Below are positions 2,812 through 59,734 of a stretch of DNA of 64,000 nt, piece by piece. The stretch covers positions 55,738,001 through 55,802,000 of the forward strand of contig JBNRSN020000004.1 in assembly GCA_051313645.2 (NCBI GenBank), in the 5' to 3' direction. Origin of the DNA: Centroscyllium fabricii. Taxonomy: Eukaryota. Position numbers and translations under genes: made by a program. The notes under the pieces are model-generated. The model did not search any database. It was not told the DNA's origin and saw only the letters and a program-made list of their open reading frames with translations. Within the stretch, counting starts at the first letter, position 1, and each line of letters opens with the position of its first letter.

Positions 2812-3476
2812 CAATTCAATTCAATTCAATTCAATTCAAGTTTTATTGTCATTGCAGAGTACTAGTACAATACAACGAGACGAAGACTCGACTCTCCCGA
2901 GAGTAGTGCAAATAAATTACATGCAGATTGCATACAGTAAAGTACATTATCAGGCGTGCAGGTGCCGGAGTTTATTTTTAGAGTTCAGGAGGCTGACAGC
3001 CCTGGGGAAGAAGCTGTTCTGAAATCTAGTCGTGCGGGTGCGAATTGATCTGTAGCGTCTCCCGGAGGGCAGGGGGGCGAACAGACTGTGGCTGGGGTGT
3101 GTGGGGTCTTTAATAATGTTCAGAGACCTCCATAAGCAGCGTTTGAGGTAGATGCTTTCCATTGACGGTAGCTGGGTACCGGTGATTCGTTGGACAGTTT
3201 TGACTTCCCGCTGCAGGGTTTTTCGGTCTGAGATAGTGCAATTTCCATACCAGACAGTGATGCAGCTTGTCAGTATGCTTTCTATTGTGCAGCGGTAGAA
3301 GTTGGAGAGGATGCCGGATGACAGCCTGGCTTTCTTCAGCTTCCTTAGGAAGTACAGGCGCTGTTGGGCCTTCTTGACCAGAGAGGAGGTGTTTAGTGAC
3401 CAGGAGAGATCTTCCGAGATGTGGACCCCGAGGAACTTGAAGCTGGACACCCTTTCCACCTCAGCCCCTTGGATGA
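2812..3476 (-). mobile_element. Rex1/Babar LINE, 5'-truncated (RT C-terminus plus 3' tail)
   Basis: ORF 2950-3459 FKFLGVHISEDLSW...KAQQRLYFLRKL...IESILT...HPSHSLF...SGRRYRS...NSFFP. Tail caatgacaataaa followed by (ttgaa)n. Confidence 0.9.
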
Positions 3477-5022: not shown

Positions 5023-5795
5023 ACACAATCTTGGCTGACACTTCAATGTAGTACTGAGGGATGCGGTACCAGAGGTCCCGTCTTTCAAGTGGCATGTTAA
5101 ACTAAGGTTCTGTCTGCCTCTTAGAAACATAGAAACATAGAAACTAGGAGCAGGAGTAGGCCATTCGGCCCTTCGAGCCTGCTCTGCCATTCAATGAGAT
5201 CATGGCTGATCATCCAAACCCAGTACCCCACCCCTGCCCTCTCCCCATATCCCTCGATCCCTATCGAGCCTGCATCGACACATATCCCACCCTATCCCCG
5301 TAACCCCACATATTCAATCCCCCTAACACTAAGGGTCGATTTATCATGGCCAATCAACCTGACCCGCACATCTTTGGACTGTGGGAGGAAACCGGAGCAC
5401 CCGGAGGAAACCCACGCACACACGGGGAGAATGTGCAAACTCCACACAGATAGTCACCTGAGGCTGGATTTGAACCCGGGTCTCCAGTGCTGTGAGACAA
5501 CAGTGCTAACCACTATGCCACCGTGCCGCCCTTCATGCAGATGTACAAGATCCCATGCCATTATTCAGAGAGGAGATGGGGAGTTCTCTCAGTATTGCTC
5601 AACCAACATCATCAGAACAGAATTATTGGTTATTTACCTCATTGCTGTTTGTTGGTCCTTGCTGTGCACAAGTTGGCTGCCGTGTTTGCCTGCAAAACAA
5701 CAGTGAACAACACATCAAAAGTAATTCATTGGTTGTAAAATACTTTGGGACATTGAGGATATGCAAGACACTATATCAATGCAAATTTGTGTTAT
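5023..5795 (+). mobile_element. Old DeuSINE (SacSINE1/AmnSINE-like) with L2-type tail, interrupted by a V-SINE
   Basis: Deu-domain-like agtactgaggga...ccgtctttc...gttaaac...tctgcc...aagatcccatg, then an L2-type tail (cattggttgtaaaatactttgggaca...aatgcaa). Confidence 0.65.
5122..5531 (-). mobile_element. HE1-like V-SINE, full length
   Basis: tRNA-like A/B boxes (tggcatagtgg, ggttcaaatcc), V-domain gtgtggagtttgcacattctccccgtg..., CR1-derived tail ending (tttctatg)n. Confidence 0.9.
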
Positions 5796-10427: not shown

Positions 10428-10824
10428 AAACATAGAAGATAGGAGCAGGAGTAGGCCATTCGGCCCTTCGAGCCTGCTCCGCCATTCAATGAGATCATGG
10501 CTGATCATCCAAACCCAGCACCCCGTCCCTGCCCTCTCCCCACATCCCTCGATCCCCATCGAGCCTGCACCGACACATATCCCACCCTATCCCCGCAACC
10601 CACATATTCAATCCCCCTAACACTAAGGGTCAATTTATCATGGCCATTCAACCTAACCCGCACATCTTTGGACTGTGGGAGGAAACCGGAGCACCCGGAG
10701 AAAACCCACGCAGACACGGGGAAAATGTGCAAACTCCACACAGATAGTACCCGAGGCTGGATTTGATCCCGGGTCTCCAGTGCTGTAAGGCAACAGTGCT
10801 AACCACTATGCCACCATGCCACCC
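10428..10824 (-). mobile_element. HE1-like V-SINE
   Basis: Same head, V-domain and CR1 tail as 5122-5531. Confidence 0.9.
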
Positions 10825-12895: not shown

Positions 12896-12953
12896 TGGTC
12901 TCTCCAGCTGTTTCACATCACACCCCAGCTGAGAGACATCAAAGCAATCAAAG

Positions 12954-13680
12954 GAGGAGATCGGCCATTTGCAGAGGGAGATCAGCCATTTGCAAGGGGA
13001 GATCGGCTGTTTGCAGGGGGAGATCGGCCGTCTGCAGGGCGAGATCAGCCGTCTGCAGGGCGAGATCGGCCGTCTGCAGGGGGAGATCGGCCGTCTGCAG
13101 GGGGAGATCGGCCGTCTGCAGGTGGAGATCGGCCATTTGCAGGGGGAGATCGGCCATTTGCAGGGGGAGATCGGCCGTCTGCAGGGGGAGACCGGCCGTC
13201 TGCAGGGGGAGATCGGCCGTTTGCTGGGGGAGACCGGCAGTTTGCAGGGCAGACCGGCCATTCGCAGGGGGAGATCGGCCATTTGCAGGGGGAGATCGGC
13301 CATCTGCAGGGGAAGATCGGCCGCCTGCAGGGGTAGATCAGCCGTTTGCAGGGGGAGACCGGCCGTTTGCAGGGGAGATCAGCCGTTTGCAGGAGGAGAT
13401 CGGCCGTTTGCAGGGGGAGACCGGCCGTTTGCAGGAGGAGACTGGCCATTTGCAGGGGGAGACTGGCCGTTTGCAGGGGGAGACCGGCCATTTGCAGGGG
13501 GAGATCGACCGTCTGCAGGGGGAGATCGGCCGTCTGCAGGGGGAGACCGGCCGTTTGCAGGGGGAGACCAGCCGTTTGCAGGGGGAGATCGGCCGTTTGC
13601 AGTGGGAGACCGGCCGTTTGCAGGGGGAGATCGGTCATTTGCAGGGGGAGATCGGCCTGTTGCAGGGGGAGATCGGCTGT
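12954..13680. repeat. 21-bp minisatellite, about 34 units, consensus gcagggggagatcggccgttt
   Basis: Directly visible tandem array. Frames give LQGEIGR, RGRSAVC and AGGDRPF repeats. Confidence 0.95.
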
Positions 13681-13999
13681 TTTTTTCCTCAGCATGGCAT
13701 CAACAGCACGAGATCGGGGTAGGAACGTATTTTTTCTGCTTCAGCTTCAATTTATTTTAGAAAAAAATGATTATGTTGCCGCAACCCTGGACTTCGGTTT
13801 TTGGAGTTGCGGATAAGGGATTGTGTACCTGTATTGATTATGACTGGACCTTTTCTGTTGAAGTTTACATCATGACATTTAACAAAAAAAAAATGGCTTT
13901 TCTTCAGATTGTGGGAAGCTTGCTAGTTTCAGAGGCTGTGTGTTTAGTCCCCCAGCAGAAGTTCATCGGTTCAATACACAGGAATACCCGATCGGCAAA

Positions 14000-14350: not shown

Positions 14351-17300
14351 TCACGTCCAATTACCAGCCCATTCACCATAACCCCTAATTCCCTTTAATT
14401 CCAGGAAACTGTCTATCTCAGTTTTAAATTTATTCAACGTAGTAGCTTCTACAGCTCTCTGGGGCAGCAAATTCCACAGCCGCACCACCCTCTGAGTAAA
14501 GAAGTTCCCCCTCATCCCAGTTTTAAAATGGGAGCCCTTTATTTTAAGATTATGCCCCCTAGTCCTAGTCTCACCCACCATTGGGAACATCCTCACCGCA
14601 TCCACCCGATCAAGCCCTCTCACAATCTTATATATTTCAATAAGATCGCCTCTCATTCTTCTGAACTCCAATGAGTAGAGGCCCAATCCACTCAGCCTCT
14701 CGTCCTATGTTAGCCCCCTCATCCCCGGAACTAACCTAGTGAATCTTCTCTGCACTGCCTCGAGATCAAGTATGTCCTTTCTTAAATAGGGACACCAGAA
14801 CTGCAAGCAGTATTCCAGGTGTGGTCTCACCAATACCCTGTACAACTGTAACAAGACCTCCCTGCTTTTATACTCAATCCCCTTAGCAATAAAAGCCAAC
14901 ATTCCGTTGGCCTTCCTTACCACCTGCTGCACCTGCATATTAACTTTCTGTGTCCCCTGCACCAGGACCCCCAGATCCCTTTGCACTGAAGTACTTTCCA
15001 GTTCCTTTCCATTTAGATAATAACTCGCTCTATTATTTTTCCTGCCAAAGTGCATAACTTCACATTTTCCAGTATTATACTCCATCTGCCAAATCTCTGC
15101 CCACTCACTTAGCTTATCTATGTCCTTTTGCAGTTTTTTAATGTCCTCCTCATTCATCACCCTCCCTCCCATTTTTGTGTCATCCGCAAACTTTGATATG
15201 TTGCACTTGGTCCCTTCTTCCAAATCGTTAATATAGATTGTAAAGAGTTGGGGTCCCAGCACCGACCCTTGCGGAACACCACTAGTGACTGACTGCCAGT
15301 CTGAGAACGAACCATTTATCCCAACTCTCTGTTTTCTGTTAGAAAGCCAATCCTCCACCCATGCCAGAATATTACCCCCAACCCCGTGATTTTTTATCTT
15401 GAGTAATAATCTTCTGTGGGGCACCTTGTCAAATGCCTTTTGGAAGTCCAAATGCACCACATCCACTGGTTCCCCTTTATCCACCCTATATGTTATGTCC
15501 TCAAAGAACTCTAGCAAATTTGTCAAACATGACTTCCCCTTTGTAAAACCATGCTGACTTTGTCCTATTAAATGGTGTTTATCCAAATGCCCTGTTACTG
15601 TTTCCTTAATAATAGATTCTAACATTTTCCCAACCACAGATGTTAGGCTAACTGGTCTATGATTTCCAGCCTTCTGTCTATTACCCTTTTTAAATAAGGG
15701 CGTTACGTTAGCAGTTTTCCAATCTGCCGGAACCTTTGCCAAGTCCAGTGAGTTTTGAAAAATTATTACCAACGCATCCACAATCCCTATCGCCACTTCC
15801 TTCAAGACCCTAGGATGTAAGCCATCAGGTCCAGGGGATTTATCCTCTTTAAGTCCCATAATTTTCCCAAGTACCATCTCCTTAGTGACTTTAAATGTAA
15901 TTAGCTCCTCCCCCCCTAGAGCCACCTGTTTATCCAATGATGGGATATTTTGAGTGTCCTCTACTGTAAAGACGGATACAAAATATTTGTTCAGCGCTTT
16001 TGCCATCTCCATGTCTCCTACCATTAATTTCCCGGTCTCATCCTCTAAAGGACCAACATTTACTTTAGCCACCCTTTTTCTTTTTATGTAACTATAGAAA
16101 CTCTTGCTATCTGTTTTTATATTTTTTGCTAACTTACTTTCATAATCTATCTTCCCTTTCCTAATCAATCTTTTTGTTATCTTTTGCTGACATTTAAAAG
16201 CTTCCCTATCTTCTATCTTCCCACTAGATTTAGCTACCTTATATAACCTTGTTTTTAGTCGGATACTCTCCTTTATTACTTTACTTAGCCACGGATAGTT
16301 GTTTTTACTTTTACACCCCTTTTTCCTCAGTGGAATATATTTATCTTGAAAGTTATAAAATAATTCCTTGAATACACACCACTGATCATGTACCGTCTTA
16401 CCCTTTAATCTGTTTCCCCAGTCCACCTTAATCAATTCTGCTCTCATACCATCATAGTCTCCTTTATTTAAGCTCAGTACCCTTGTTTGAGATCCAACCC
16501 TCTCACCCTCTAATTGAATTTGGAATTCGACCATGTTATGGTCACTCTTTCCAAGGGGATCCTTTACTAGGACATTTTTAATTAATCCTGTCTCATTACA
16601 TAGGACCAGATCTAAGATTGCTTGCCCCCTGGTCGGTTCAGTTACGTACTGTTCAAGGAACCCATCCCTAATACACTCAATGAACTCTTCCTCAAGGCTG
16701 CCCTGTCCAACTTGATTTGTCCAGTCAATATGAAAGTTAAAATCTCCCATAATTATAGCTGTTCCCTTATTACAAGCCCCAACTATTTCCTGATTTATAC
16801 TCCGTCCAACTGTGTTACAACTGTCTGGAGGCCTATAGACTACGCCCACTATTGTTTTTTTCCCTTTATTATTTCTTATTTCCACCCAAACTGTTTCACC
16901 ATCTTGATGCTCTGAACCAATATCTGTCATAGGGTGGATTCCTTTTCAAGGAATTCCCCTTTAAGGAATCCATCTTTGTATTCTATGTTTTTGCTTGTTG
17001 TACCTCATTTACCTGTGCACATACCTCAGTGTACCTCGTTCGCTGTTACATGCACTTGATTGGATAGCTCTAATCAATCTAGTTAGCTTGATTTGCTTAT
17101 AAGCTTAGAGCTGAGACCAGCAAGTTGCCGGATCATTACTACTTACAACTAGGACACACAGAGGTGCTGTCCTAGCTCCGTGGGAGGCAGTTGCGCATAT
17201 GGATGATGGACTCTCCTTCAGAAAACTCAGTGAGAGTGAGTCCCCGCTGTGGAGCGGATTCTGGAGAATTCCTAATTCTACACTCTGGACATTGCTCTCT

Positions 17301-18152
17301 ATTACCTGAACTCAGGTTTGGACATTCCATTTCTACATTCTGGACTGTGCTCTCTATCACCTGAACTCAGTAGCTCCATGGAGGCAAATGTATGTGGGGC
17401 GTTCCCCTGCTTGTGGATAATGGATTCTCTTTCTGAAGACCCAGGTTGGAGTGAGTCCCTGCGATGGACAGGACTCTGGAGAATTCCATTTCTACATTCT
17501 GGACATTGCTCTCTATCACCTGAACTCAGGATGGGACATTTCATTCTTACTACAATGAGGCCCTTCTGTTATGAGGATGCTCTTTGTTGAGTGTCCTGGG
17601 GGTTCAGTTGTACATTGCTCTAAATCACCTGAACTCAGTTTTGGACATTTCATTCTTACTACAATGAGGCCCCTTCTGTTATGAGGATGCTCTTTGCCGA
17701 GTGTCCTGAGGGTTCCGTTCAGTATTAAGCTTGTTCCAGTTTTCCTTCTGAAGACTTGCTTTATATGTATATTATTTGTATGTATGGATGTATTTAATAT
17801 AGGTTTGGTTACATTATATGAAATAAAGGAATCTGAGTTTTAGACTGTTTTCTCAGTGTCTCGCATTTGGGCCCCACCACCCAAACGTTACAATATCATT
17901 CCGCTGTATTGCCGTGATACCTTGCCTTACTAATATAGCCACCCCACCTCCCCTTCCCTCCCGCCTGTCCCTCCTAATCATTAAATACCCTTGTATGTTT
18001 AATTCCCAGTCCTGGTCACCCTGTAGCCATGTCTCCGTAATTGCCACAAGATCATACCCATATGTAACTATCTGTGCCGTCAACTCGTCCATCTTATTAC
18101 GAATACTACGTGCATTCAAATAGAGGACTTTCAAATATATCTGACACTTCAT
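14351..18152 (-). pseudogene. CR1 ORF2 (APE + RT), interrupted by a solo LTR and one in-frame TAG at 14705-14707
   Basis: NARSI/ITETW/GGGV (18152-17893) joins DIGSEH...GDFN...SDH...PQGSVLGP...FADDTK (16924-14705). Segment 14351-14686 continues in the same frame past the stop. Confidence 0.92.
16925..17892 (+). mobile_element. Solo LTR (968 bp) inserted in CR1 ORF2
   Basis: TGT...ACA termini, 5-bp TSD ATATC (16920-16924 and 17893-17897), TATA-like ttataag near 17097, AATAAA near 17822, internal direct repeats. Confidence 0.85.
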
Positions 18153-19267
18153 CCTGCTTTTTCCTTTTTTTCAACTTTACCTTTATCACCATACATTCTT
18201 TCCTTTCCTGACACACTCTGTCTTTTAATTGTCCCGTTGTTACCTATGTCCATTACCTTCTCCAGTGTCATTTTATTTATTTGCTCTCTAGAAACCTCCA
18301 CCCCACTAATTAGATTTAAAGCCCTCTCTACAGCCCTAGTTATACGATTCGCCAGGACACTGGTCCCAGCCCGGTTCAGGTGAAGCCCGTCCCACCGAAA
18401 CAGTTCTCCCCTGTCCCAGTACTGGTGCCAGTGTCCCAAGAAGCAAAACCCAATTCTCCCACACCAGTCTTTGAGCCACGCATTTAACTCCCTAATTTTA
18501 TTTACCCTATCCAAATTCGCTCGTGGCTCAGGTAATAACCCAGAGATTATTACCCTTGAGGTTCTGTTTTTTAGTTTGACCCCTAGCTGCTCATACTCCT
18601 GTAACAGAACCTTCTTCCTTGTCTTATCTATGTCGTTGGTACCAACATGTACCAGGACAAGTGGATCCTCCCCTTCCCACTGCAAGTTTCTCTCCAGTCC
18701 AGAAGAGATGTCCTTAACCCTTGCACCAGGCAGGCAACACAGCCTTCGGGACTCCCGCTGTTGGTTGCAGAGAACTCTATCTATCCCCTTGATGATACTG
18801 TCCCCTACCACTACAACATTTCTATTAACTCCCCCCTCTTGAATGGCCCTCCGCTCCACGGTGCTGTGGTCAGGTTGCTCATCCTCTCCACAGTCCCCGC
18901 TCCCGCCCCCACAGGGAGTAAGAGCCTCAAACCTGTTGGACAAGAGCAAGGTCTGCGGGTCCTCCAACACTACCGCCTTGATTCCCGTACCTGCCTCATT
19001 TATAGTCACACCATCCTGTCCCTGGCCATGATCTACATTTAAGTTAATTAATCTATTTTGTGTGGCTGTTTCCTGCACCATAAAGTCCAGGTAATTCTCC
19101 CCTTCCATGATGTGTCGCAGTGTTTGAAGCTCAGAATGCAGCTCATCAACATGAAGCCGGAGTTCCTGGAGCAACAAACACTTGCTGCAAATGTAGTCAC
19201 CGCGAGCATCAATCGTGTCCACGAACTCCCACATCTCACAGCAGTAGCACATCACCTGCTCACCCAT
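18149..19267 (-). CDS. CR1 ORF1p: Zn-finger/leucine zipper plus SGNH esterase, intact 372 aa
   Basis: CYCCEMW...CSKC plus heptads; blocks GDSII, PGARV, HVGTND and DGLH. Confidence 0.9.
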   Translation of the reverse strand: MGEQVMCYCCEMWEFVDTIDARGDYICSKCLLLQELRLHVDELHSELQTLRHIMEGENYLDFMVQETATQNRLINLNVDHGQGQDGVTINEAGTGIKAVVLEDPQTLLLSNRFEALTPCGGGSGDCGEDEQPDHSTVERRAIQEGGVNRNVVVVGDSIIKGIDRVLCNQQRESRRLCCLPGARVKDISSGLERNLQWEGEDPLVLVHVGTNDIDKTRKKVLLQEYEQLGVKLKNRTSRVIISGLLPEPRANLDRVNKIRELNAWLKDWCGRIGFCFLGHWHQYWDRGELFRWDGLHLNRAGTSVLANRITRAVERALNLISGVEVSREQINKMTLEKVMDIGNNGTIKRQSVSGKERMYGDKGKVEKKEKAG

Positions 19268-20080
19268 TCTATATATTTAATTATACTTATTAATTATACC
19301 CAATATAGTTAAATATCACGATATTAAAGAGCACTTTCCACCAGTGACGTATAAAGAGTAAAATAGAAGCAACAGTACTTACCAACAAGCTGATTGGTAA
19401 GTATTGCTGCCGTCATGCAAGAGTAAGCAGACAGTTCATCATAAAAAGACTATGCGCATCTGATAGCAAAACAATCATAATGAACGTGTAGTAAGAATGC
19501 AAATATTACAGCAGTAACACCTGCTTTATCTGAGTTATCTTTACTGTCGCCTGAAGACTAAATTGGAAATATAATTGATATGATAATATTTGAATAATTA
19601 CTTACTTCAGATACTATTTGTTCATTTATCTATATAATAAAGTTTGCTATACAGTGCGGCATACGTTAAATTTGTGGATGAAAAAATATATTGGCTCAAA
19701 TAAGCAATTTATGTTTACTTATTCACTGAAATATAGATCACCAAAGATCCCACAGAAAACAGCTGCTTCGAAAGCTGCAATTTCAACCAATCATACTGCT
19801 GCATTTCTCAGTGCTTCCACCTGTTATGTCTAGCTCAATATACAGCTGTATAAATCATACTTATTAAATAACAAACAGACAAGATTTTGCTATAAATCCC
19901 ACCGTTGTCTGTTGGAAATAGGGTCCAAGTAGTTTCTCCTGCAGGTCTCTTGGCCAATCTGATTGAAGAGGCCGAACCAAGTGGTAGAATCCCAGAATGC
20001 CACGGTCGCTCTGCATATGTCAACCTGGTGAGCTACCTTCTCCCATTGGTACTATGAGCAGGGCAACCTAACCAACAGTC

Positions 20081-22932: not shown

Positions 22933-23608
22933 AATATGTCCAACCAGAGTTAGCAACCCTCTCCGAGTGCAGACCCAGCAAGCACTGAGTTTGGTTCTCT
23001 CGATTGCAAGATCAGTTGTGGCCCAGCCTACTGTCCCAGAATGGTTCGCTGAGTGATGTTCATCCACTATTTAGAACTGGGGAAATACCAAGCAGTTGAT
23101 TAGAGTTCAACTGAAAAGTGCATAATTAATTTGAAAATAAACTCCAGATAAAATATGTCACGTGATTTTACCACTCATGTACACACATTTTTTTTAAAAG
23201 GCAGTGCTTTTTTTAGAGATGTACTTCCTGTTAAGTCAAAGCTAACATTTGAAATATAGACAGGATGAACAGCAGTGTTCTCTTTAATTTATTTCCCCTG
23301 CATGGGCTCTTTAACTGGTTGCGTTGTACATTCAAAGTTTTGTGAATGCGCGGTTTCTTCATCGTAAAAGCTGGTGAGCGGCCTGCGCGAGATCTCCAGA
23401 TATCTGCACGGCTGCACTTAGCGGAACATTGATAAGCAGGCTGCAACAAAGTAGTCCCAATGGGAATCAAGGGGTAAACTCTCCATTGGTTGGAATCATA
23501 CCTAGCACAAAGGAAGTTGGCTGTGGTTGTTGGAGGTCATTCATCTCAATCACAGGACATCACTGCCGGAATTCCTCAGGGCAGTGTCCTAGGCCCAACC
23601 ATCTTCAG

Positions 23609-24010
23609 GCGGCATGGTGGCATAGTGGTTAGCACTGTTGCCTCACAGCACTGGAGACCCGAGTTCAAATCCAGTCTCGGGTACTATCTGTGTGGAGTTT
23701 ACACATTCTCCCCGTGTCTGCGTGGGTTTCCTCCGGGTGCTCCAGTTTCCTCCCACAGTCCAAAGATGTGCGGGTTAGGTTGATTGGCCATGATAAATTG
23801 ACCCTTAGTGTTAGGGGGATTGAATATGTAGGGTTACGGGGATAGGGTGGGATATGTGTCGGTGCAGGCTCGATAGGGATTGAGGGATATGGGGAGAGGG
23901 CAGGAGTGGGTTACTGGGTTTGGATGATCAGCAATGATCTCGTTAAATGGCGGAGCAGGCTCGAACGGCCGAATGGTCTACTCCTGCTCCTATCTTCTAT
24001 GTTTCTATGT
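23609..24010 (+). mobile_element. HE1-like V-SINE
   Basis: Full structure, TTCAG TSD. Confidence 0.9.
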
Positions 24011-24395
24011 TTCAGGTGTTTCATCAATGACCTTCCCTCCATCATAAGGTCAGAAGTGGGGATGTTCGCTGATGATTGCACACTGTTCAGCACCATTCGA
24101 GACTCATCAGGTACTGACGCATTCCGTGTCCATATGCAGCAAGACCTGGACAACATTCAGACTTGGGCTGACAAGTGGCAAGTAACATTCGCACCACACA
24201 AGTGCCAAGCAATGACCATCTCCACCAAGCGAGACTCTAACCATCTCCCCTTGACTTTCAATGGCATTATCATCGCTGAATCCCACACTATCACCATCCT
24301 GGGGGTTACCATTGATCGGAAACTGAACTGGACCAGCCATATAAATACTGTGGCTACAAGAGCAGGCCAGAGGCTGGGAATTCTGTGGCGAGTGT

Positions 24396-24792
24396 CATAG
24401 AAACATAGAAGATAGGAGCAGGAGTAGACCATTCGGCCCTTCGAGCCTGCTCCACCATTCAATGAGATCATGGCTGATCATCCAAACCCAGTACCCCGCC
24501 CCTGCCCTTTCCCCATATCCCTCGATCCCTATCGAGCCCGCACCGGCACATATCCCACCCTATCCCCATAACCCCACATATTCAGTCCCCCTAACACTAA
24601 GGGTCAATTTATCCTGGCCAAACAACCTAACCCGCACATCTTTGAACTGTGGGAGGAAACCGGAGCACCCGAAGGAAACCCACGCAGACACGGGGAGAAT
24701 GTGCAAACTCCACACAGATAGTACCCGAGGCTGGATTTGAACCCGGGTCTCCAGTGCTGTGAGGCAACAGTGCTAACCACTATGCCACCGTG
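24396..24792 (-). mobile_element. HE1-like V-SINE
   Basis: Full structure in reverse orientation. Confidence 0.9.
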
Positions 24793-25856
24793 TCTCACCT
24801 CCTGACTCCCCAAAGCCTTTCCACCATCTACAAGGCACAAGTCAGGAGTGTGATGGAATACTCTCCACTTGCCTGGATGAGTGCAGCTCCAACAACACTC
24901 ATGAAGCTCGACACCATTCAGGATAAAGCAGGCCGCTTGATTAGCACTCCATCCACCACCTTCAACATTCACTCCCTCCACCACCGGCGCACTGTGGCTG
25001 CAGTGTGTACCATCTACAAGATGCACTGCAGCAACTCGCCAAAGCTCCTTCAACAGTACCTTCTAAACCTGCGACCTCTACCACTTAGAAGGACAAGGGC
25101 AGCAGATGCATGGGAACAGCACCACCTACAAGTTCCCCTCCAAGCCGCACACCATCCTGACTTGGACCTGTATCGCTGTTCCTTCACTGTCGCTGGGTCA
25201 AAATCCTGTAACTCCCTTCCTAACAACATTGTGGGTGTACATACACCATATGGACTGCAGCGGTTCAAGAAGGCAGCTCACCACCATCTTCTCAAGGACA
25301 ATTAGGAATGGGCACTAAATGCAGGCCTTGCCATCCAGTGACGCCCACATCCCATCAATGGTTAAAAAGAAAACACGAGAGATAGTGATAGATATGACCG
25401 GTTCACCTCCAGCTGATCTGCAGTGGAGGAGGAACTGGTTGGATTAAAAGTGCCCCAGATAAACCATAGCAAATAAATGTACTAAAACACACCCTTATTG
25501 ATTCAGTAGTTCACTATGAACAAAAGTAGCTTTCTTAAATGTACTGTTGACTCTAGAAGAAATTTGGCAATTGTTTGAAAATCTTTAATGCGTTAAAGAC
25601 CGAAGAAGTTTGTAAAAGGTCAATTTTGTTTTTATTCGATCATGGGATGTGGGCGTCACTGGCAAGGCTAGCATTTATTGCCCATCCATAATTGCCCTTG
25701 AGAAGTTGGCGGTGAGCCGTCGCCTTGAACTGCTGCAGTCCGTGTGGTGAAGATACTCCCACAGTGCCGTTAGGGAGGGAGTTCCAGGATTTTGACCCAG
25801 CGACGATGAAGGATCGGCGATATACTTCTAAGTCAGGATGGTGTGTGACTTGGAGG

Positions 25857-26277
25857 TTGATGTGCCTTCAACAACTACAAAACTAGAAGTTATAGACTTA
25901 AACAGAAATGCTTTTAATCACTAAGAATTAGAGCTCACATCTCATCGGGCCGGCTGTCTCACAGGAATGAGTTATATAGATCCTGGATCTTTATGTAAGG
26001 TGAGCCAGGGGCGGAGCCAAAGCCAATTCCTGGAATCTCCCAGGTTTAGTCAGGAAACAGGAAGTGCAACTATACACAGTGGGGGAGGGTAATATACATG
26101 AGTGCAAAAGGAATACTCAAATCCGCGTATCACCAGCTCCCCATTAGAACGGAGGACCGCCCATACACCGCCTTCGACGCGAACGGGCGTCTCTACCATT
26201 TTCTCAGAGTGCCCTTCGGGGTAACAAATGGGGTGTCGGTTTTCCAACGCGAGATGGACTGCATGGTTGACGAGATG
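25857..26277. mobile_element. LTR-like fragment plus Gypsy RT fragment inserted in the LINE
   Basis: 26117-26277 on the plus strand reads LKSAYHQLPI..EDRPYTAF...LYHFLRVPFGVTNGVSVFQREMD. The upstream 250 bp looks like a minus-strand LTR 3' part. Confidence 0.7.
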
Positions 26278-27691
26278 GGAACTTGGAGGTGGTGGTGTTC
26301 CCATGCACCTGCTGCCCATCTCCTTTTATGTGGAAGGGTTCACGGGTTTGGGAGGTGCTGCTGAAGAAGGCTTGGTGAGTTGCTGCAGCGCATCTTGTAG
26401 ATGGTACACACTGCAGCCACGATGCATCGGTGGTGGAGGGAGTGAATGTTTAAGGTGGTGGATGAGGTGCCAATCAAGCAGGCTGCTTTGTCCTGGATGG
26501 TGTCAAGCTTCTTGAGTGTTGCTGGAGCTGCACTCATCCAGGCAAGTAGAGAGTATTTCATCACAATCCTTACTTGTGACTTGTAGATGGTGGAAAGGCT
26601 TTGGAGAGTCAGAAGATGAGACACTCATCGCAGAATACCCAGCCTCTGACCTGCTCTTGTTGCCACAGTATTTATGTGGCTGGTCCAGTTAAGTTTCTGG
26701 TCAATGGTGACCCCCAGGATGTTGATAGTGGTGGATTTTACGATGGTAATACTGTTGATTGTCACGAGGCAGTGATTAGACTCCCCCTTGTTAGACATAG
26801 ATATTGCCTGGCACTTGTGTGGCGTGAATGTTACCTGCCACTTATCAGCCCAAGCCTGAATGTCGTCCAGGTCTTGTTGCATGCAGGCAAGGACTGCTTC
26901 ATTATCTGAGGAGTTGTGAATGGCGCTGAACACTGCGCAGTCATCAGCGAACATCCCCATTTCTGACCTTATGTTGGAGTGAAGGTCATTGATAAAGCAA
27001 CTGAAGATTGTTGGGCCTAGGGCACTGCCCTGAGGAACTCCTGCCACGGTGATGATTGAGCTCCAACCACCACAACCATCTTCCTTTGTGCTTGGATGAC
27101 TACTAATGTCCCAATCTCCTCCATCACCATCCCTGGGTATGTCCTGTCCCAACGCCAGAACAGACCCACCAGGGGTGGCAGCACAGTGGTGTGCCATCGG
27201 GAATGATTGGGTCTGGGAGTCCTCAACATTGACTCTGGACTCATGGCAAGGAAACCTCCTGCTGATTAACACCTACCACCCTCCCTCAGCTGATGAATCA
27301 GTACTCCTCCATGCTGAACACCACTTGGAAGAAGCACTGAGAATAGCAAGGGCACAGAATGTACCCCAGATGTTGGTGAGGGGGACTTTGCAGGATCAAC
27401 TGGGCTGGATATGCCATGGTCGTGTGCATAGCTGGTGCCGAGGTCGATGCCGGTGGTCCGTCCGGTTTCATTCTTATTATTGTTGTTTCTTGTAGTGGTT
27501 TGTTACAACTGAATGGCTTCTTAGGCCATTTCAGAGGGCAGTTAAGAGTCAACCGTATTGCTGTGGGTCTGGAATCACATATAGGCCAGGCCAGGTAAGG
27601 ACAGCAGATTTTCTTCCCTAAAGGACATTAGTGAGCCAGATGGGGTTTTAAGACAATCCTATAGTTTCATGGTCACCATTACTGACACTAG

Positions 27692-28585
27692 GAGGGGAAT
27701 TTTTAAAAAAGCTGTGGGAAGCAAGCGGGTTTTGGGCAGGTCAGTTTTCTGCCCCGCCCGCCCAAGGACCTGGGAGGCCTGAGCGATATTGGATCAAGTG
27801 GCCAACTAAATCCCCGCCGAACTGTTGGGCTCCCAATACACACAAATGGGGGGGAAACAAAGCCCTTTACATTCACAATTTGAGTTGGGTGGGCTGTTGA
27901 TTAACAGGCCTGAGTAGTAAGAACTCACTAATCTTGATTGACAGATCTAAAGTGTTGCCTTTGTTCCTATGTTTACACAGCCATGTGAGTCAGAGTATGA
28001 AGGAACCATATGAAACCACAAAACAAACAGTTGAACTGAGTCAGTGTTTGTTTGTGATTTCAATGGAATGTAAACAGAAACTGATCCCCAGGGTGATTGA
28101 CAACTTGGTTCACAGCGCAGCGCGATGTCTGTTAAATAGGAGCGAGTTGAAGATTAATGATATCAAGGTTTTGGGCTCTGAAGTTTCTCACCCTTGGGTG
28201 GCAGCTGCACCTCCAGCATGGTGGAGGCTAGCAAGCTGCTGTGTGGGTGCTGTGCCAATGCCTTGAAGGTGGTAGACACCCAGCCGCCTGGGTTCCCACC
28301 ACCTTTTTCACGGTGGGTTTTCACCAGCCGGGTTTTGGGTGGGAAGAGGGCTAAAATAGCTGAGGGCCCTTAAAATCCGATTAGCCATCGAATTAAGGGC
28401 TCTCAACGACCTCAATCTGTATCCCCACCGGCGGCAGGCGGGAAACATGCGGGGCTGCAAAACCCGCCCAATGAAACTCCCAAATGGGCGGGGATCCGGC
28501 GGGGTTCCTTCCCGCCCACCAGATTGGAATTTTAGAAACTGACCCGCCAAAAACCCGCACTCAGGGACCTCCTAAAATTCCCCCC
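27692..28585. mobile_element. Family A-related MITE inserted in the MetaSINE head
   Basis: Termini ggggaatttt...aaaattcccccc; shares gggcccttaaaat and other blocks with family A. Confidence 0.7.
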
Positions 28586-29062
28586 TCACTTTTTATTGCA
28601 GATTTATTTAATTAACTGAATTTAAATTCCTCAGCTGCCGTGGTGGGATTTGAACTCACGTCTCTGGATCATTAGTCCAGGCCTCTGGATTACTAACTCA
28701 GAAACATTCCCACTGTGCTACCATTTCCACAAATTGGCAGCACCTTAAGATTGGATTGGCGTTTTCTATTTAACTGTTGTGTTTGGATCGGAAATACTGT
28801 ACAGTGGGAATGAATGAGACCTGGTTTGGCATACTGAAACGTAATATCAGAGTGAAAATGATGCTCTAGAGGCTCTTGATGATTTAATGAGTAAAGGCGC
28901 TGTGTGGTGCTATATTAAACCAAATAGAATATTTGTGGTTTCATTCCCAATCTTTGCTGCGACTTCTGCTCTAAGCAGAAACAGCAGGAATGCTAAAACT
29001 GGCCTTGCACCATCGGGTTAGGGAAGGAAAATCTCAACCAGGTTTCCAACATGTTCATCTAT

Positions 29063-29189: not shown

Positions 29190-30035
29190 GACTGTCATTT
29201 TAATTCTCCGGACCACTCCCACTCTGACCTCGGCCTCCTACACTGTCCCAATGAAGTTCAACTTAAGCTCGAGGAACAGCACTCCATCTTTCTATTATTC
29301 ACTTTACAGCCTTCCGGACTCAGCATTGAGTTTAACAATTTCAGATCATAACCACTGCTCCCATTTTTTTGGACAACATCTGTTGCAGATAATTCTGATG
29401 TTCCCATTTAAACCTCCACTCGACCCATCTTTTGTTTCTTTACTTGTCTCATTAGCATCTCCTTTCACCTTGTACGGCACGGTGGCACAGTGGTTAGCAC
29501 TGTTGCCTCACAGCACTGGAGACCCGGGTTCAAATCCAGCCTCGGGTACTATCTGTGTGGAGTTTGCACATTCTCCCCGTGTCTGCGTGGGTTTCCTCCG
29601 GGTGCTCCGGTTTCCCCCCACAGTCCAAAGATGTGCAGGTTAGGTTGATTGGCCAGGATAAATTGACCCTTAGTGGTAGGGGGATTGAATATGTGGGGTT
29701 ACGGGGATAGGGTGGGATATGTGTCGATGGGGGCTCGAGAGGGATATGGGTAGAGGGTAGGGGCGGGGTGCTGGGTTTGGATGATCAGCCATGAACTCAT
29801 TGAATGGCAGAGCAGGCTCGAAGGGCCGAATGGCCTACTCCTGCTCCCAGTTTCTATGTTTCTATGTTTCAATGTACCATCCTCCCTTTTGTCATTTAAT
29901 CACTCCTGCCTTCCACCCTATCACAGACCTTCCTTTTCCTTTTACCTCCCCTCGTTCCCTGCCTCTGTACTTGCTTTAAACCTGTTACATCGCTAACCTT
30001 TTCCAGTTCTGACGAAGGTCCATTGACCTGAAAAG
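29190..30035 (+). mobile_element. Penelope-like (Neptune-type) 3' fragment: GIY-YIG C-terminus, 3' UTR and truncated hammerhead core; interrupted by a V-SINE
   Basis: HFNSPDHSHSDL..LHCPNEVQLKLEEQHSIF..TLQPSGLSIEFNNF*. CTGACGA-AGGTC catt GACCT-GAAA at 30009-30033. Confidence 0.8.
29476..29873 (+). mobile_element. HE1-like V-SINE
   Basis: Full structure, TGTAC TSD. Confidence 0.9.
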
Positions 30036-45200: not shown

Positions 45201-46661
45201 AATAGACAATAGACAATAGACATTTACGGCACTTGAACAGGCCAGCCGGCCTACAAGTCGTGCCGCCCGATCCCTCCAGCTTCCCTTCTAATACCCTTCT
45301 CTCCCCATGTGGATATCCAGTTTCCTCTTGAACGCCTCCAGGCTGCCTGCCTCTACAATCCGTGCCGGCAGCCTATTCCAATCTCCCACAACCCTCTGCG
45401 TGAAGAACCCCCCTCTTCCATCCCTTCTGAACTTTCCTCCCTGTATTTTATACTTGTGACCTCTCGTACCTATCTCCCCCATCCTTGGAAACAGTCTTTG
45501 TATGTCCACCTGATCAATGCCCTTCATCATTTTGAATACCTCTATCAGGTCTCCCCTTGCCCTTCTTCTCTCTAGAGTGAACAGCCCCAGTTGCCCCAGC
45601 CTCTCCTCGTACGTCTTCCCTCCCATCCCCGGCAGCATCCTTGTGAATCTCCTCTGCACCCTCTCCAGAGTCTCCACGTCCTTCCTGTACCTCGGTGCCC
45701 AGAACTGAACGCAGTACTCCAAGTGCGGTCTTACCAGCGTTGTATACAGCCTCATCAACACCTCTCTGTCCCTAAACTCCAGGCCCCTATTGATGAAGGC
45801 CAGTATCCCATAGGCCTTCTTTGCTGCCCTGTCCACCTGTGCGGCCGCCTTCAGTGACCTATGCACATACACCCCCAGATCTCTCTGCTCCTCCGTTTCC
45901 TTTAACACTTTTCCGTTTAGTCTGTATTCCCTCCTTCCGTTCTTGCTGCCAAAATGCATCACCTCACATTTCCCAGCATTGAACTCCATCTGCCATCTCT
46001 CAGCCCATCCCTGCATTCTTTCTATATCCCTCTGTAGTCTCTCCCCTCCTTCTTCCTCATCCACTTCCCCCCCAATTTTTGTATCGTCCGCAAACTTACT
46101 GACCCACCCCTCTGTTCCTTCCTCCAAGTCATTTATGAAGATAGCGAACAGTAGTGGACCCAGCACTGATCCCTGCGGGACCCCGCTGGTGACCGGTCTC
46201 CAACTGGAGTAACATCCATCCACTACCACTCTCTGTCTCCTTTGCGCCAGCCAGTTCTCTATCCAGTTAGCTATTCCCTCATTTACCCCACATCCCCTTA
46301 CTTTCCTCATCAGTCTTCCATGTGGAACTTTATCAAAGGCCTTGCTGAAATCCATATAGACCACATCAACCGCCTTCCCTTCATCCACACTCCTGGTCAC
46401 TTCCTCAAAGAACTCTATCAGATTTGTCAGGCACGATTTGCCCTTCACAAATCCGTGCTGACTGCTCCTAATGAATTTAACCTCTTCTAAGTGCCTATAC
46501 ACCCTATCCCTCAGTACCCTCTCCATTACTTTTCCCACCACTGAGGTCAGGCTGACCGGTCTGTAGTTTCCCGGTTCCTCCCTGGACCCTTTCTTAAATA
46601 GTGGAACTACATTCGCCTCCCTCCAATCACCCGGCACCATCCCTGATGCTAGTGAGGCCAT
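45201..46661 (-). mobile_element. Young 5'-truncated CR1 with an uninterrupted 457-aa RT frame (45288-46661)
   Basis: RT motifs intact, including PQGSVLGP and FADDTK; (gtctatt)n tail. Confidence 0.93.
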
Positions 46662-47668
46662 CCTTCACACCTTGAAGGAGAAAGTTATAACCAGCGCTGT
46701 GCTCCCGCTGGGTTTCACCCAGCGGGGTTTAAGGTGACTGGGTTAGGGCGGTAAACAGGGCAAAATGGCTGAGGGCCCTTAAAATGGCATTAAAGATGCC
46801 AATTAAGGGCCCTTAACGAGGTAACAACCCATTCCCGCCGGCCGGCGATGGAAAGGTTTTGGGGCGGGGAATCTGGGCGTGGGAAAATGAGAAAGCGTCG
46901 GGGATATGGCAGGGGGGGCGGGATCTGCCGGTTCCGCTATTTTTCCGGCTGGGCCGCCGAAAACCCCGCCTCACGGGGACATGAAATTCCCCCCCCCTTA
47001 GTTTGAATTGTCCTCAAAGTATGATCTGATTTGCTATACGCTTCTCTCCAGTCCAGAAGCTCAGAAGCAGTGGACTATTGCTGTATGTGTTGATGCGGAT
47101 TAGTTTTATGACTTAAGGATAAGCTACTTTCATGTCAAGAAGTGATGCTTCTTTTTATAGCAACAGCGGAGATTTTTGGAAGAGAAGAAGAGTTTAGTTG
47201 CTCAAGCAAGCCTGTCTGCTTTGTCCTACACCTTCTTCCTCTGGAAACCCATTTAAATTAACAACACGTCACATACAGTGTTGCTCGCTTTCGTGGGGAC
47301 TGGCGCACGGCAAAAGGGAGGCAGTGGACGGTGAAGTAGGTTTGGAGTGAGAAGGAAGAATAGACTTTTCCAGCACAAGAAGAGGCCATTCGGGCCGCTG
47401 TGCTCTTGCTGGCTTTATGAAAGAGCTATTCAATTAGTCCTACAGCCCTGCAAGTGGTGTGCAGCTGTGATGGGCTGTGCATTGAGTAAAAAAAAGTGTG
47501 AAACTCTCAACGAGAAATGCACGCAGGTAGCTGGGCCATGACAATGAATGTCAGTTGGGTTTATTTCAGTGTGTAATTTATTCATTTGTTAATAGTAATG
47601 AAGTGTGGGTGTCAAATAATGTTATAATCCACCTGTTTATCTTTGATAACACTGGGATTTGCCTAAAA

Positions 47669-50435: not shown

Positions 50436-50838
50436 GGGCAGCACGGTGCCAAAGTGGTTAGCACTGTTGCCTCACAGCACTAGAGTCCCGGGTTCAAATC
50501 CGGCCTCGGGTACTATCTGTGTGGAGTTTGCACATTCTCCCCGTGTCTGCGTGGGTTTCCTTCGGGTGCTCCGGTTTCCTCCCACAGTACAAAGATGTGC
50601 AGGTTAGGTTGATTAGCCATGATAAATTGACCGTTAGTGTTAGGGGGATTGAATAGGTGGGGTTACGGGGATAGGGTGGGATATGTGTCGGTGCGGGCTC
50701 GATAGTGATCGAGGGATACGGGGACAAGGCAGGAACAGGGTACTGGGTTTGGATGATCAGCCATGATCTCATTGAATGGCGGAGCAGGCTCGAAGGGCCG
50801 AATGGCCTACTCCTGCTCCTATCTTCTATGTTTCTATG
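50436..50838 (+). mobile_element. HE1-like V-SINE
   Basis: Full structure, CAAAA TSD-like flanks. Confidence 0.9.
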
Positions 50839-51010: not shown

Positions 51011-54000
51011 TGTGGCGACACGCCCACCAACAACATCGAACCCGCATCGGGAGCGCTGCAAGACGGTCCCGCCCACCAGGCGGCGTGCTGACGTCACCGC
51101 GACTTCCGGCGTGATGACGTCGCCAGGTGGAGACCCGGCAGTGACGTCACCTACCTGGGCTCCAGGTGGCTCAGTCTCTTTTCCACCTAGCCCTAGCTAC
51201 AGTAACAATAAATGTTAACCTTCCGACTCATCTGTGTCCAGTGTGGTTCTTCGGCCCTGCATGCCTCTACAGTGGTGACCTCGATACTTGGGACGATTTC
51301 CAAGAGATCAATGAAGCAGTCGCTGCAGGACTGAGGGCCAAGCTGCCTCAGTTGAATCGCAACCACCATGCCAGCAGGGATCGAAACAGCACGCCACCAC
51401 AGACAGGGCCAGCACTTCGGCCACATCCCAATCCTACCTGAGTTCTGGGAACTCCGTCCAGCGGCCTGGTTCCTCAACACTGAGAACACCTTCCGCATCC
51501 ATGGCGTGCAGGGGGACGATCGCTACAGCCTGCTCTTCGCAGCCCTTGCGCAGCCCACAATCGACCGAATGTGGGACTCCATCGAGCAAGAACCAACTGC
51601 TGGCAGGTATGAATCGCTTAAGGCCGCGCTGCTCCAAAAATTTACCCCCACCATTTTTGAGCGCGACTGCCAAGTCATTAATCTCCCCGACCTGGGGGAC
51701 GCAGACCCCACCGACCTGTGGGCCCAATTCGAAGCGCTTAACCCAGACCCGGCCACTCTCAAGCGCGCCTTGTACCTCCTTAAACTGCCCCACTCCGTCA
51801 GACCGGCTCTGACGCTCCTGGAGCACCTCTCAACCAAGCAACTAGCTCAGGAGGCAGACAAGCTGATAAAGGCCGAGCGCACCCGCGCCACCATGCACCG
51901 TAACGCTACCGCTCCACCGGAGCAGCACTACGCGCACCCCAGGCACCAAGCCAGAGCGGTGCGGACCCACAAAAAGCCATGCACTACGGGCCCAGGCTGG
52001 TGCTACTACCACACCAGGTTTGAAGCCAAAGCGCAGCGCTGCATCCAGCCCTGCACCTTCAAACCCCAAACCAGCCCAAGCCACACAATGTCCGTAGGCC
52101 GCTCCGGAGCACTGCTCTTCGTTACAGACAGTTGCTCAGGCCTCCGCTTCCTCTGCGACACAGGCACGCAGCACAGCATCGTGCCAGCCTCCTCCGCAGA
52201 AACCAAGCAGGGTACCCAAGGCCCACCACTCGAGGCCGCAAACGGCTCCGAAATAGTCACGTTCGGCACCCGCCAGCTTACCATCAAGCTGGCAGGCCAC
52301 ACGTACACGTGGGACTTTATCACAGCCCAAGTTAAAATACCCCTACTCGGGGCCGACTTTCTGCGCGCCCACGGCCTCCTGGTCGACGTTACCCGACGCC
52401 GCCTGGTCGACATCCACAACATGTCGACCATCCCATGCTCCACAAGGCCGGCACACCAGACCCACGCAGCATCCCACTGCCGAGCCCGGAACTCCGACAC
52501 GTACGCCACGCTGCTCGCGGAGTTCCCAGCCCTAACCAACCCCACCTTCACAGCCCGCACGGCCAAGCACGGGGTGGAGCACCACATCACCACCACAGGC
52601 CCCCCAGTCCATGCCCACGCACGCAGGCTGGACCCGGCCAAGCTGGAGATCGCGCGCGCCGAGTTCCACATCATGGAACAACTCGGCATTATCCGCCGCT
52701 CCAGCAGCCCCTGGGACTCCCCCCTCCACATCGCCCCCAAACCCGGCGGCGGCTGGCGCCCCTGCAGAGACTACCGCCGCCTCAACAATGCCACCACCCC
52801 GGACAGGTACCCCGTCCCCCACATCCAAGATTTCTCAGCCAGGCTAGCCGGCTGCACGGTCTTTTCCAAGATCGACCTGGTACGGGGCTACCACCAGGTA
52901 TCGGTGCACCCGGCGGACGTCCCTAAGACAGCCGTCATTACCCCATTCGGCCTGTTTGAATTCCTCCGAATGCCCTTAGGACTCAAAAACGCGGCCCAGG
53001 CCTTCCAGCGCCTCATGGACTCAGTCCTACGGGAGTTGCAGTTCACGTTCGTCTATCTCGACGACATCCTCGTGGCCAGCGCCTCCCCCCAGGAACACCT
53101 CGTCCATCTCAGGGCCCTTTTCAACCGTCTGGCCAAACACGGCCTTATATTAAGCCCCTCCAAGTGTCGATTCGGCCTCGAGGCTATCGACTTCCTCGGC
53201 CACCACATCTCCCAGACCGGGGCCATACCCCTGCCCTCCAAGGTGCAGGCGGTCCAGGAATTCCCCCGCCCGCACTCCATCAAGGGGCTGCAGGAATTCC
53301 TTGGGATGGTTAACTTTTACAACCGTTTCATCCCCCGAGCAGCCGCTCTCATGGCCCACCTCTACCACGCCACCCGCGGGCAGTCCAACAAGGCCGCGGT
53401 CGAGTGGACGGCCGAAGCCTCCACCGCCTTCACCGCAACCAAAACTGCCCTAGCCAACGCCACGCTCCTCAGCCACCCTAGGCCCAACGCCAGAGTAGCC
53501 CTCACCACCGACGCCTCCGACCACGCTGTCGGAGCAGTCTTTCAGCAGTGGACGGGCGACTCCTGGCAGCCCCTGGCCTTCTTCAGCCGACAGCTCCGGC
53601 CCCCGGAGGTCAAGTACAGCGCCTTTGATAGGGAGCTACTCGCTCTCTACCTCGCGGTGCGCCACTTCCGCTTCTTCCTAGAGGGCCGCCACTTCACAGC
53701 CTTCGTGGATCACAAGCCACTTGTGTCCGCAATGGCCAAGATCTCTGAACCCTGGTCGGCCAGGCAGCAGCGCCAGCTCGCGGCTGTGTCGGAATTCATT
53801 ACCGACATCCAGCACATCGCCGGCCGCGACAACGTGGTCGCTGACTGCCTCTCACGGCCCACCATCGACAAACCGGCCTCCGACCACCCCCCACGCCCCA
53901 CCATCGACAACGTGGTCGCCGACTGCCTCTCACACCCCACCACCGACAGCGTCTGTGCGCACTGCCTCTCACGCCCCACCATCAACTTCGTCCAAACGGC

Positions 54001-59197: not shown

Positions 59198-59698
59198 GGG
59201 GCGGTGGTGGCATAGTGGTTATGTCACTAGACTAGTAAAGCCAGAGGCTCAGTCAAATGCTCTGAAGATATGGGTTCAAATCCCACCACGGCAACTGGTG
59301 GAATTTAAATTCAATTCAATTTAATTCTGGAATTAAATGTTAGTCTTAGTAATGGTGACCATGATACCATTGTCGATTGTTGCAAAAACCCATCTGGTTC
59401 ACTAATGTCCTTTAGGGAAGGAAATCTGCCGTCCTTACCTGGTCTGGCCTACATGTGACTCCAGACCCACAGCAATGTGGTTGACTCTTAATACCCTCTG
59501 AAATAGCCTAGCAAGCCACTCAGTTGCAAAGAAAAAACAACCGCTACGCAACATTGTGGGTGTACCTACACCATATGGACTGCAGCGGTTCAAGAAGGTG
59601 GCTCACCACCATCTTCTCAAGGGCAATTAGGGATGGGCACTAAATGCAGGCCAAGCCAGCCAGCGACGCCCACATCACATCAACGAATAAAAAAAAAA
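59198..59698 (+). mobile_element. MetaSINE (tRNA head, Meta-type body, Zenon-like LINE tail)
   Basis: A box tggcatagtgg and B box ggttcaaatcc; body aaaaacccatctggttcactaatgtcctttagggaagg...; the last 150 bp or so match the LINE 3' end (25224-25370); poly(A). Confidence 0.85.
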
Positions 59699-59734
59699 GC
59701 GGGACCATTAAACCACACCAACAAATGAAGAAAT

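Follow-up and report, generated by a model that had tools for sequence, protein, structure and literature searches.

The DNA analysed here is a 64,000-nucleotide stretch of the Centroscyllium fabricii genome (contig JBNRSN020000004.1, positions 55,738,001 to 55,802,000; 'the window' denotes the whole of it). It carries a long interspersed nuclear element (LINE) of the Zenon family at 25625-28730 and a 501-bp short interspersed nuclear element (SINE) that shares both ends with that family (Table 1). SINEs and their partner LINEs are normally taken to share only the tail; LINEs are regarded as messenger RNAs made by RNA polymerase II (Pol II) and SINEs as non-coding parasites whose transcripts come from RNA polymerase III (Pol III). 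In Zenon, one abundant vertebrate family carries both LINE and SINE identities.

The LINE in the window is a dead, rearranged mosaic copy of a 3.3-kb elasmobranch Zenon LINE and belongs to its subfamily B. In order, it consists of consensus positions 8-129, 130-455, 544-832 (inverted), 2227-3063 and 3060-3282. Positions 456-543 and 833-2226 are gone, and because the reverse transcriptase (RT) resumes only at position 2227 after the inverted segment, about 1.4 kb must have been lost. A sequence-only reading of the window had described a tRNA-like A/B-box head and body on the minus strand that run directly into the start of a CR1/Zenon-like open reading frame (ORF; ...TNIWG), followed by RT and a 3′ untranslated region (UTR). 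Both boxes can be located, and the body does join the ORF start directly, but head and body are separated by an 895-bp element. The RT and 3′ UTR are present too, but the ORF is broken up by the inversion, the 1.4-kb loss and a 417-bp insert.

Table 1. Features of the Zenon LINE copy and of the 501-bp SINE in the window (EN, endonuclease; MITE, miniature inverted-repeat transposable element; LTR, long terminal repeat).
Feature	Position	Strand	Remarks
tRNA-derived head and AT-rich linker, subfamily-B Zenon	28586..28729	-	93.5% to subfamily-B consensus 8-129
A-box of window head	28710-28720	-	
B-box of window head	28646-28657	-	
895-bp secondary insertion	27691..28585	.	G-rich terminal inverted repeats; MITE-like non-autonomous DNA transposon
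Leader body	27499..27690	-	near-invariant core of ~145 nt and 3′ hairpin (27506-27534), decayed here
Start of EN+RT frame	27365..27498	-	basic N-terminal extension, from GCT position (CpG-decayed) to TNIWG (27366-27377); contains an out-of-frame ATG (27462-27471)
Inverted endonuclease fragment	27103..27364	+	consensus 544-832
RT and C-terminal part	26274..27101	-	consensus 2227-3063; FADD motif 26940-26948; 90% to subfamily B
417-bp inserted Gypsy-like fragment	25857..26273	.	RT-like piece and LTR-like stretch
ORF end, short 3′ UTR, A-tail	25625..25856	-	AATAAA at 25631-25636; 92% to subfamily B 3060-3282
501-bp SINE	59198..59698	+	Zenon subfamily-A nt 1-343 and 3169-3315; junction 59548/59549
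A-box of SINE	59208-59218	+	
B-box of SINE	59273-59283	+	

Both insertions are secondary to the family. The 895-bp element has full-length copies of 87-89% identity at three other loci (L142, L154 and L043) and is found in neither subfamily consensus; the 417-bp insert, which we take to be Gypsy-like from its peptide, has 75-79% matches in the flanks of other loci. DNA-transposon insertions recur in the subfamily-B linker at consensus positions ~130-134, with the same MITE in reverse orientation at L043 and a different TA-flanked element in the same bases at L033, L040, L107 and L134, which makes this linker a possible insertion hot spot. A segmental duplication as the source of the look-alike at L043 was rejected, since its MITE is oppositely oriented and its matches to the window are pieces of repeats at 70-89%. 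Three further Zenon copies (L105, L114 and L149) likewise have one part inverted against the rest; together with the window copy, they suggest twin-priming or template jumps at insertion.

Despite the state of this copy, head, body, ORF and tail form one transposition unit that is present in thousands of copies and occurs in sharks and rays. Genome similarity searches were scored on the best 40 matches of each. A query across the body-to-ORF junction has 6,843 candidates, the best 40 of which all span the junction at 87-100% identity, and a consensus of subfamily B built from 39 loci comprises head, body, EN+RT and tail over 3.3 kb. An exact 22-mer across the junction in the younger subfamily A occurs 5,902 times and one near its 3′ end 24,235 times (reversed controls, 0), so the junction is anything but unique to the window. 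A query containing EN only, and thus no selection for the head, leaves 29 non-self loci among the best 40 of 3,714 candidates: 12 continue colinearly into the head, 13 end in the body and four in the linker. Stops in the body or linker fit what 5′ truncation predicts, and inspection by eye of the 60-nt flanks of these 29 loci revealed no other shared 5′ end, nor a full-length copy with an unrelated one.

Subfamily A has its own head variant, and its copies are 96-99% identical to their consensus. With a query that contained the head, 40 of 40 copies reach it; the 5′ end is sharp and lies just upstream of the A-box. Both ends are preserved in 24 of the 40, and for 10 of these the joined flanks match an uninterrupted repeat elsewhere, so that they must have inserted from head to tail as one piece; convincing target-site duplications were found in none of the 24. 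In contigs of the organisms labelled B, J and K, the ORF likewise continues into the body. The family-wide headed architecture is as good as certain, although a divergent subfamily with another 5′ end could escape a scoring of the best 40 matches per search, which is a point against its generality. A chance insertion of a SINE upstream of a LINE fragment, an idea to which the mosaic window copy with its two foreign insertions and inversion lends itself, is refuted by the thousands of identical junctions, the empty-site joins and the same join in other species, and retains next to no probability.

The sequence-only reading had gone one step further and proposed that a coding LINE family has adopted a SINE as its 5′ UTR/promoter. 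A tRNA-derived, SINE-like head is indeed the 5′ end of the family; its adoption from a pre-existing SINE is a conjecture. Among 158 body matches, a sample drawn mostly from Zenon or SINE queries, none is a SINE that joins the Zenon body to a non-Zenon tail. At four loci (L007, L022, L028 and L064), only the first 78 nt of the body core are present, in diverged form (77-78%), and the sequence after them is unrelated; these loci represent either an older relative or a further element that carries the body.

In the intact copy L177, a frame of 972 residues (P0001) has Exo_endo_phos at 42-242 and RVT_1 at 529-775, so that a single ORF supplies APE endonuclease and RT as in Zenon LINEs of the CR1 group, and intact frames of 971-972 codons occur in four of 40 subfamily-A copies. 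Upstream of EN there is only a leader of ~340 nt, whose longest ATG-started frame has 35 codons in A and 76 codons in B, in line with the earlier suggestion that the LINE has no ORF1; Zenon copies end in a poly-A tail. The RT tree places the element apart from canonical CR1 with a clade support of 0.997, in a tree that contains no named Zenon. Its assignment to Zenon is based on the match of its 5′ end to elasmobranch Zenon consensuses already published: in the first 400 nt given in the supplement of PMC13343379, all seven shark and ray consensuses (SquAca_Zenon-1/2/3, CarCar, ScyCan, RhiTyp and HypSab Zenon-1) start with the same head, body and junction, and SquAca_Zenon-1 agrees by eye with subfamily B near letter for letter. 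The two hagfish and one coelacanth Zenon consensuses of the same source carry no head; its acquisition probably dates to the elasmobranch lineage.

The family itself is therefore already published, as an element of likewise ~3.3 kb without ORF1 and with a poly-A tail whose elasmobranch members were missing from repeat databases (PMC13343379), while its tRNA head appears to have gone unremarked. In the parts of that source consulted, 'tRNA' and 'promoter' do not occur in the main text, nor 'tRNA' in the supplement, and a Pol III-type head, an absent AUG, the absence of T4 runs and derived SINEs are not described; the head of subfamily A is absent among the consensuses it displays. A whale shark preprint, in the portion available, names just CR1-Zenon-like LINEs. 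A tRNA-headed Zenon was not found in the literature, a search outside which lay Repbase and Dfam, either of which may hold one. As a side observation, a public aldo-keto reductase gene model of Heptranchias perlo (P0010) includes ~215 residues that are 74% identical to the Zenon ORF, which is probably an artefact of gene prediction.

What might the head do? Its A and B boxes suggest, with somewhat better than even prospects, that Pol III transcribes Zenon from this tRNA-type promoter. At a relaxed threshold, ARAGORN reads the subfamily-A head as tRNA-Thr(AGT). Between subfamilies A and B, the boxes are identical at 9/9 and 12/13 aligned positions and the spacer between them at 36/47; by eye, the published elasmobranch consensuses displayed in PMC13343379 keep the A-box in seven of seven cases and the full B-box in six of seven.

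A second line of evidence comes from the sense strand downstream. A run of four T residues (T4) is the Pol III terminator. The 3.3-kb consensuses of A and B contain no T4 at all, compared with 16 A4 runs in each, and the coding frame of intact copies is free of TTTT; because no such terminator occurs, Pol III could read through the element. Two intact copies and the A consensus have no T4 where 2.7-3.9 are expected (P 0.017-0.041 under three null models). All of 15 control retroelement frames from the same genome have at least one T4, and none is significantly depleted (lowest P 0.085); a young CR1 family, considered as a further control, consists mostly of truncated copies. Relatives from a metagenome set provide an outside comparison: of 80 loci, 43 have frames of at least 800 codons, seven fall into the Zenon-like clade and six of these have a complete start. 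All six have an in-frame methionine before EN, 8-36 T4 runs and no A/B boxes. Neither leader nor tail has a blastn match at E 0.1 among the 80 loci, and relaxed ARAGORN matches in 15 of them, one upstream of the ORF of L219, look like noise.

It is important to point out what weighs against a Pol III promoter. The head stays below tRNA thresholds: the Rfam tRNA match at 28641-28706 (23 bits, E 0.068) is below gathering, Rfam yields only chance-level matches on the young leader, and ARAGORN at default settings finds no tRNA in the window. A Markov null with the rarity of TTT built in predicts only 0.6-0.9 TTTT, which makes the depletion modest, and the metagenome relatives are richer in T (24-31% versus 20%). 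Finally, usual Pol III products of SINEs are 100-700 nt long (PMC10886601), so that 3.3 kb would be far longer. Boxes and missing T4 runs are hence consistent with Pol III, not proof of it.

The competing account takes the head for a captured piece of tRNA or SINE and the LINE RNA for a Pol II transcript, from a promoter in the leader or by host read-through. The T-poor strand would then be an ordinary LINE bias, with the boxes retained for TFIIIC binding or for the benefit of the short derivatives. Characterised LINEs are all treated as Pol II transcripts in the sections consulted (PMC5786205, PMC10886601), and the tail has an AATAAA and poly(A). The T4 P values are just 0.02-0.04, and one of the control CR1 frames is also low in T4 (one in 1,740 nt; the P of 0.085 above). 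Yet sharks and rays alike have kept the boxes even as the intervening spacer diverged, the elements start at a sharp boundary just upstream of the A-box, and the loss of AUG and of T4 coincides with the head, neither being seen in the head-less relatives. A Pol II origin of the RNA is thus rather unlikely.

The AUG loss concerns the main frame. Its first in-frame methionine is residue 284, beyond EN; the EN upstream of it is under purifying selection (ratio of non-synonymous to synonymous divergence, dN/dS, 0.15 between A and B, compared with 1.2 and 2.6 in shifted frames). Eleven upstream ATGs open only short or out-of-frame ORFs, which makes cap-scanning unlikely and also tells against a Pol II messenger. 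The EN+RT frame probably starts without an AUG, at a GCT triplet that follows the body or shortly past it: GCT and TNIW are 117 nt apart in 40 of 40 A copies, their spacing is divisible by three in 38 of the 45 scorable copies of the B set (of 99), and four published species keep the GCT frame by eye through length changes of 3 nt, SquAca-1 being one letter short. The ATG at 27462, quoted in the sequence-only reading, was rejected as a plain start; it lies in another frame than TNIWG, and 37 of 40 copies of the young subfamily A have ATA in its place. Two observations count against a start upstream of EN without AUG: whichever frame is read, purifying selection is not seen on the N-terminal extension (dN/dS 1.2 and 0.6, at few sites), and subfamily B retains the out-of-frame ATG, as do the consensuses of white shark, stingray, whale shark and catshark and those of SquAca-1/-2 in the published part consulted.

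How such a start might be set is suggested by the body. Subfamilies A and B agree in its core at 144 of 145 aligned positions, compared with a dS of ~0.2 in the ORF, which makes the core a constrained cis-element. The last hairpin of the body has a 7-nt loop shaped like the anticodon loop of tRNA-Ala(AGC) and complementary to the in-frame GCT; it is predicted in both subfamilies, with loop and GCT conserved and a fold z of about -0.5. An anticodon-like pseudoknot between loop and GCT might start translation, a proposal with a slender chance of being right. The folding z-scores of head, body and hairpin are all non-significant (-1.55 to +0.62), no covariation of loop and GCT was seen, and GCT changes in old copies resemble CpG decay. 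In favour of the pseudoknot, a common hairpin variant in B retains a G-U pair (16 of 57 copies), and in local samples a stem-breaking variant is present in 7 of 26 SINE copies against 2 of 95 LINE copies; the SINE query carried that variant itself, however, and inherited variants are not independent. Against it, 7 of 57 B copies have a changed loop in which the fourth pair is lost.

The main rival to the pseudoknot is a start at the out-of-frame ATG, whose upstream ORF begins MKPDGPPG..., followed by a -1 frameshift into EN, or else a near-cognate start codon, with no role for the hairpin. That ATG is present in 37 of the 45 scorable B-set copies as well as in the six published consensuses, and indels between it and TNIW preserve the frame. 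Its replacement by ATA in nearly all sampled copies of the young subfamily A, which has thousands of them, is difficult to reconcile with such a start; a classical slippery heptamer is not apparent by eye, and length changes upstream, between ATG and GCT, are also multiples of three (22 versus 25 nt among A, B and, by eye, four published species), with SquAca-1 (24) and the shorter SquAca-2 as exceptions. This route, too, is unlikely.

As the sequence-only reading noted, the free SINE in the window combines both LINE ends: it matches the LINE through head and body as far as the CCGCTACG motif (59541-59548) and then continues with the last 147 nt of the LINE. It is a non-coding, multi-copy element of uniform structure, with a LINE-derived tail and a tRNA-derived head that has A and B boxes but a weak covariance-model score. 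The best 40 matches in the genome are all near full length at 95-100%, and exact 22-mers across its junction occur 7,008 times (reversed controls, 0). A consensus of 30 copies is 99.1% and 98.6% identical to LINE A at the two ends and 87-88% to B, without foreign sequence and without exact microhomology at the deletion junction; the window copy itself gives 94% and 98% to A, and 87% and 86% to B. The claim that it is an internal-deletion derivative thus holds for the Zenon LINE, not for the branch of the window's LINE copy. Since A and B share the head-ORF join and the SINE ends are A-specific, the SINE is most simply derived from A by deletion after the A/B split, and we consider an internal deletion of subfamily A very likely. 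By eye, the window copy splits the RT-like reading of another LTR element (58800-59760); the flanks stay in frame across it, and no target duplication is visible.

A second short family of ~406 bp (loci L294-L305) joins LINE-A nt 1-327 to 3237-3315 and has 92 exact matches. Of 12 copies examined, 11 have an A-type head and one is 5′-truncated, and all have an A-type tail; all short elements examined carry young-subfamily (A) LINE ends. It is this family that bears on the reverse order of events, in which an old SINE made of head, body and Zenon tail gave its 5′ part to a truncated LINE and was later homogenised by template switching. Truncation would explain why the AUG is missing, SINEs commonly exchange modules according to the parts consulted of PMC5499810 and PMC4824008, and contigs of organisms B, C and D have the ~406-bp breakpoint at much the same place. 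The recurrence weighs against simple deletion and could reflect either a hot spot guided by structure or recombination between the LINE and an old lineage of SINEs. On the other side stand the A-type ends of the ~406-bp copies, a loop variant that six of the 12 share with the 501-bp SINE and that fits secondary deletion, the common one-off internal deletions with other breakpoints (L056, L131, L143, L156, L111 and L065) and the breakpoint of the 501-bp family two codons into the ORF. A SINE-first history is improbable for the present elements, while it may hold for the first origin of the leader.

The explanation that best combines these observations is, with a modest lean in its favour, transcription by Pol III driven by the tRNA head, translation of EN+RT without AUG, and generation of the 501-bp SINE from the young subfamily by deletion. 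TFIIIC and Pol III would use the A and B boxes and read through the whole 3.3-kb element, a step on which we are only mildly confident. Translation of the uncapped RNA would then begin at the conserved in-frame GCT or immediately past it, by a route set by the leader, the start without AUG being the more probable part. Target-primed reverse transcription is established for LINEs, and the protein would copy its RNA in this way from the 3′ tail. Jumps during copying would, in all likelihood, give rise to deletion products that keep promoter and tail and act as SINEs. That Zenon operates wholly outside Pol II, cap and AUG, with an uncapped Pol III RNA, a factor-poor internal ribosome entry site (IRES) in its leader and a start by anticodon mimicry, has a small chance of being correct in full.

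If Pol III is indeed the polymerase, the Zenon RNA is a naturally occurring Pol III transcript of 3.3 kb that codes for protein, and a model for translation that needs neither cap nor AUG; because intact young copies exist, this unusual expression route is testable in cells. If the leader is an IRES, any internal deletion would yield a ready-made tRNA-SINE, and at least one SINE body would be a former LINE translation element. The family also offers a direct route for the birth of SINEs and a candidate function for the otherwise unexplained SINE body. On a practical note, annotators will break such elements into 'SINE + LINE' and miss the ORF start.

The remainder of the window is rich in repeats. 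A 5′-truncated young Zenon-A copy (23458-25368, plus strand; 96-97% to consensus A) is split by two ~400-bp insertions of a different, abundant SINE. A very abundant tRNA-SINE family of ~400 bp, presumably V-SINE/HE1-like, has copies 90-94% alike at 5122-5530, 10428-10824, 29475-29870, 50436-50838, 57724-58123 and elsewhere. Canonical CR1 is represented by a near-complete element on the minus strand (14705-16945 and 18149-19276; a 746-codon ORF2 piece and an upstream ORF1-like frame of 375 codons) and by a minus-strand fragment of a very young family (45288-46664), of which at least 39 other loci match 893 bp at ~100%. Two Gypsy-like LTR elements with frames of 1,370 and 1,274 codons, 91% alike, lie in inverted orientation (51011-55803, plus; 59735-64000, minus), and a tandem array with a 21-bp period occupies 12952-13682.

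Several known systems resemble parts of this picture; the comparisons below draw on the sections consulted of each source. The leader recalls the dicistrovirus IRES of the intergenic region (IGR), in which a stem-loop in pseudoknot I (PKI) pairs with the codon ahead of the first decoded one: both have a leader of ~190 nt immediately followed by a frame without AUG, and a possible pairing of loop and codon (PMC3894237, PMC3517527, PMC10275262). Unlike the IGR IRES, the Zenon leader has only three to four possible pairs and no compensatory changes; the ribosome-binding PKII and PKIII were not found in it, and the young copy has no Rfam IRES match at E up to 10. It is not an IGR-IRES member, even though it may work alike. 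Were a non-LTR element to hold an IRES of the IGR type, the way ORF2 is annotated would have to be reconsidered (PMC3894237). MetaSINEs have a tRNA-Thr-like head in common with Zenon, while motifs of their 66-bp Meta domain, placed right behind the head, are absent from the Zenon leader; the sequence-only reading had called the body Meta-type, but three BivaMeta/BivaMD motifs of 10-12 nt fit only with 3-5 mismatches, as they do in 44-100% of shuffles (PMC4824008).

The 501-bp SINE, not described in the portions consulted of PMC5499810, PMC7245038, PMC10886601 and PMC3747384, consists of nothing but the two ends, 5′ and 3′, of a single autonomous partner, the hallmark of SIDE and bipartite elements. 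It resembles the Persaeus SIDE of lepidopteran Zenon, a short, internally deleted element from Zenon 5′ and 3′ ends that arose several times (PMC6740152); Persaeus has no tRNA homology or Pol III promoter, whereas the shark deletion product has A and B boxes and is indistinguishable from a tRNA-SINE. Bipartite non-autonomous LINEs of the RTE, Ingi, Vingi and R2 groups and SINEs of the Bov-tA type likewise share LINE 5′ and 3′ sequence (PMC5786205). A precedent for the architecture is RTE-1_DAn with its relatives, LINEs with a tRNA-like sequence but of the RTE clade (PMC5786205). In the bipartite and Bov-tA-type elements a tRNA head was added to a deleted LINE (PMC5786205), whereas in the elasmobranch Zenon family the autonomous LINE itself bears the head.

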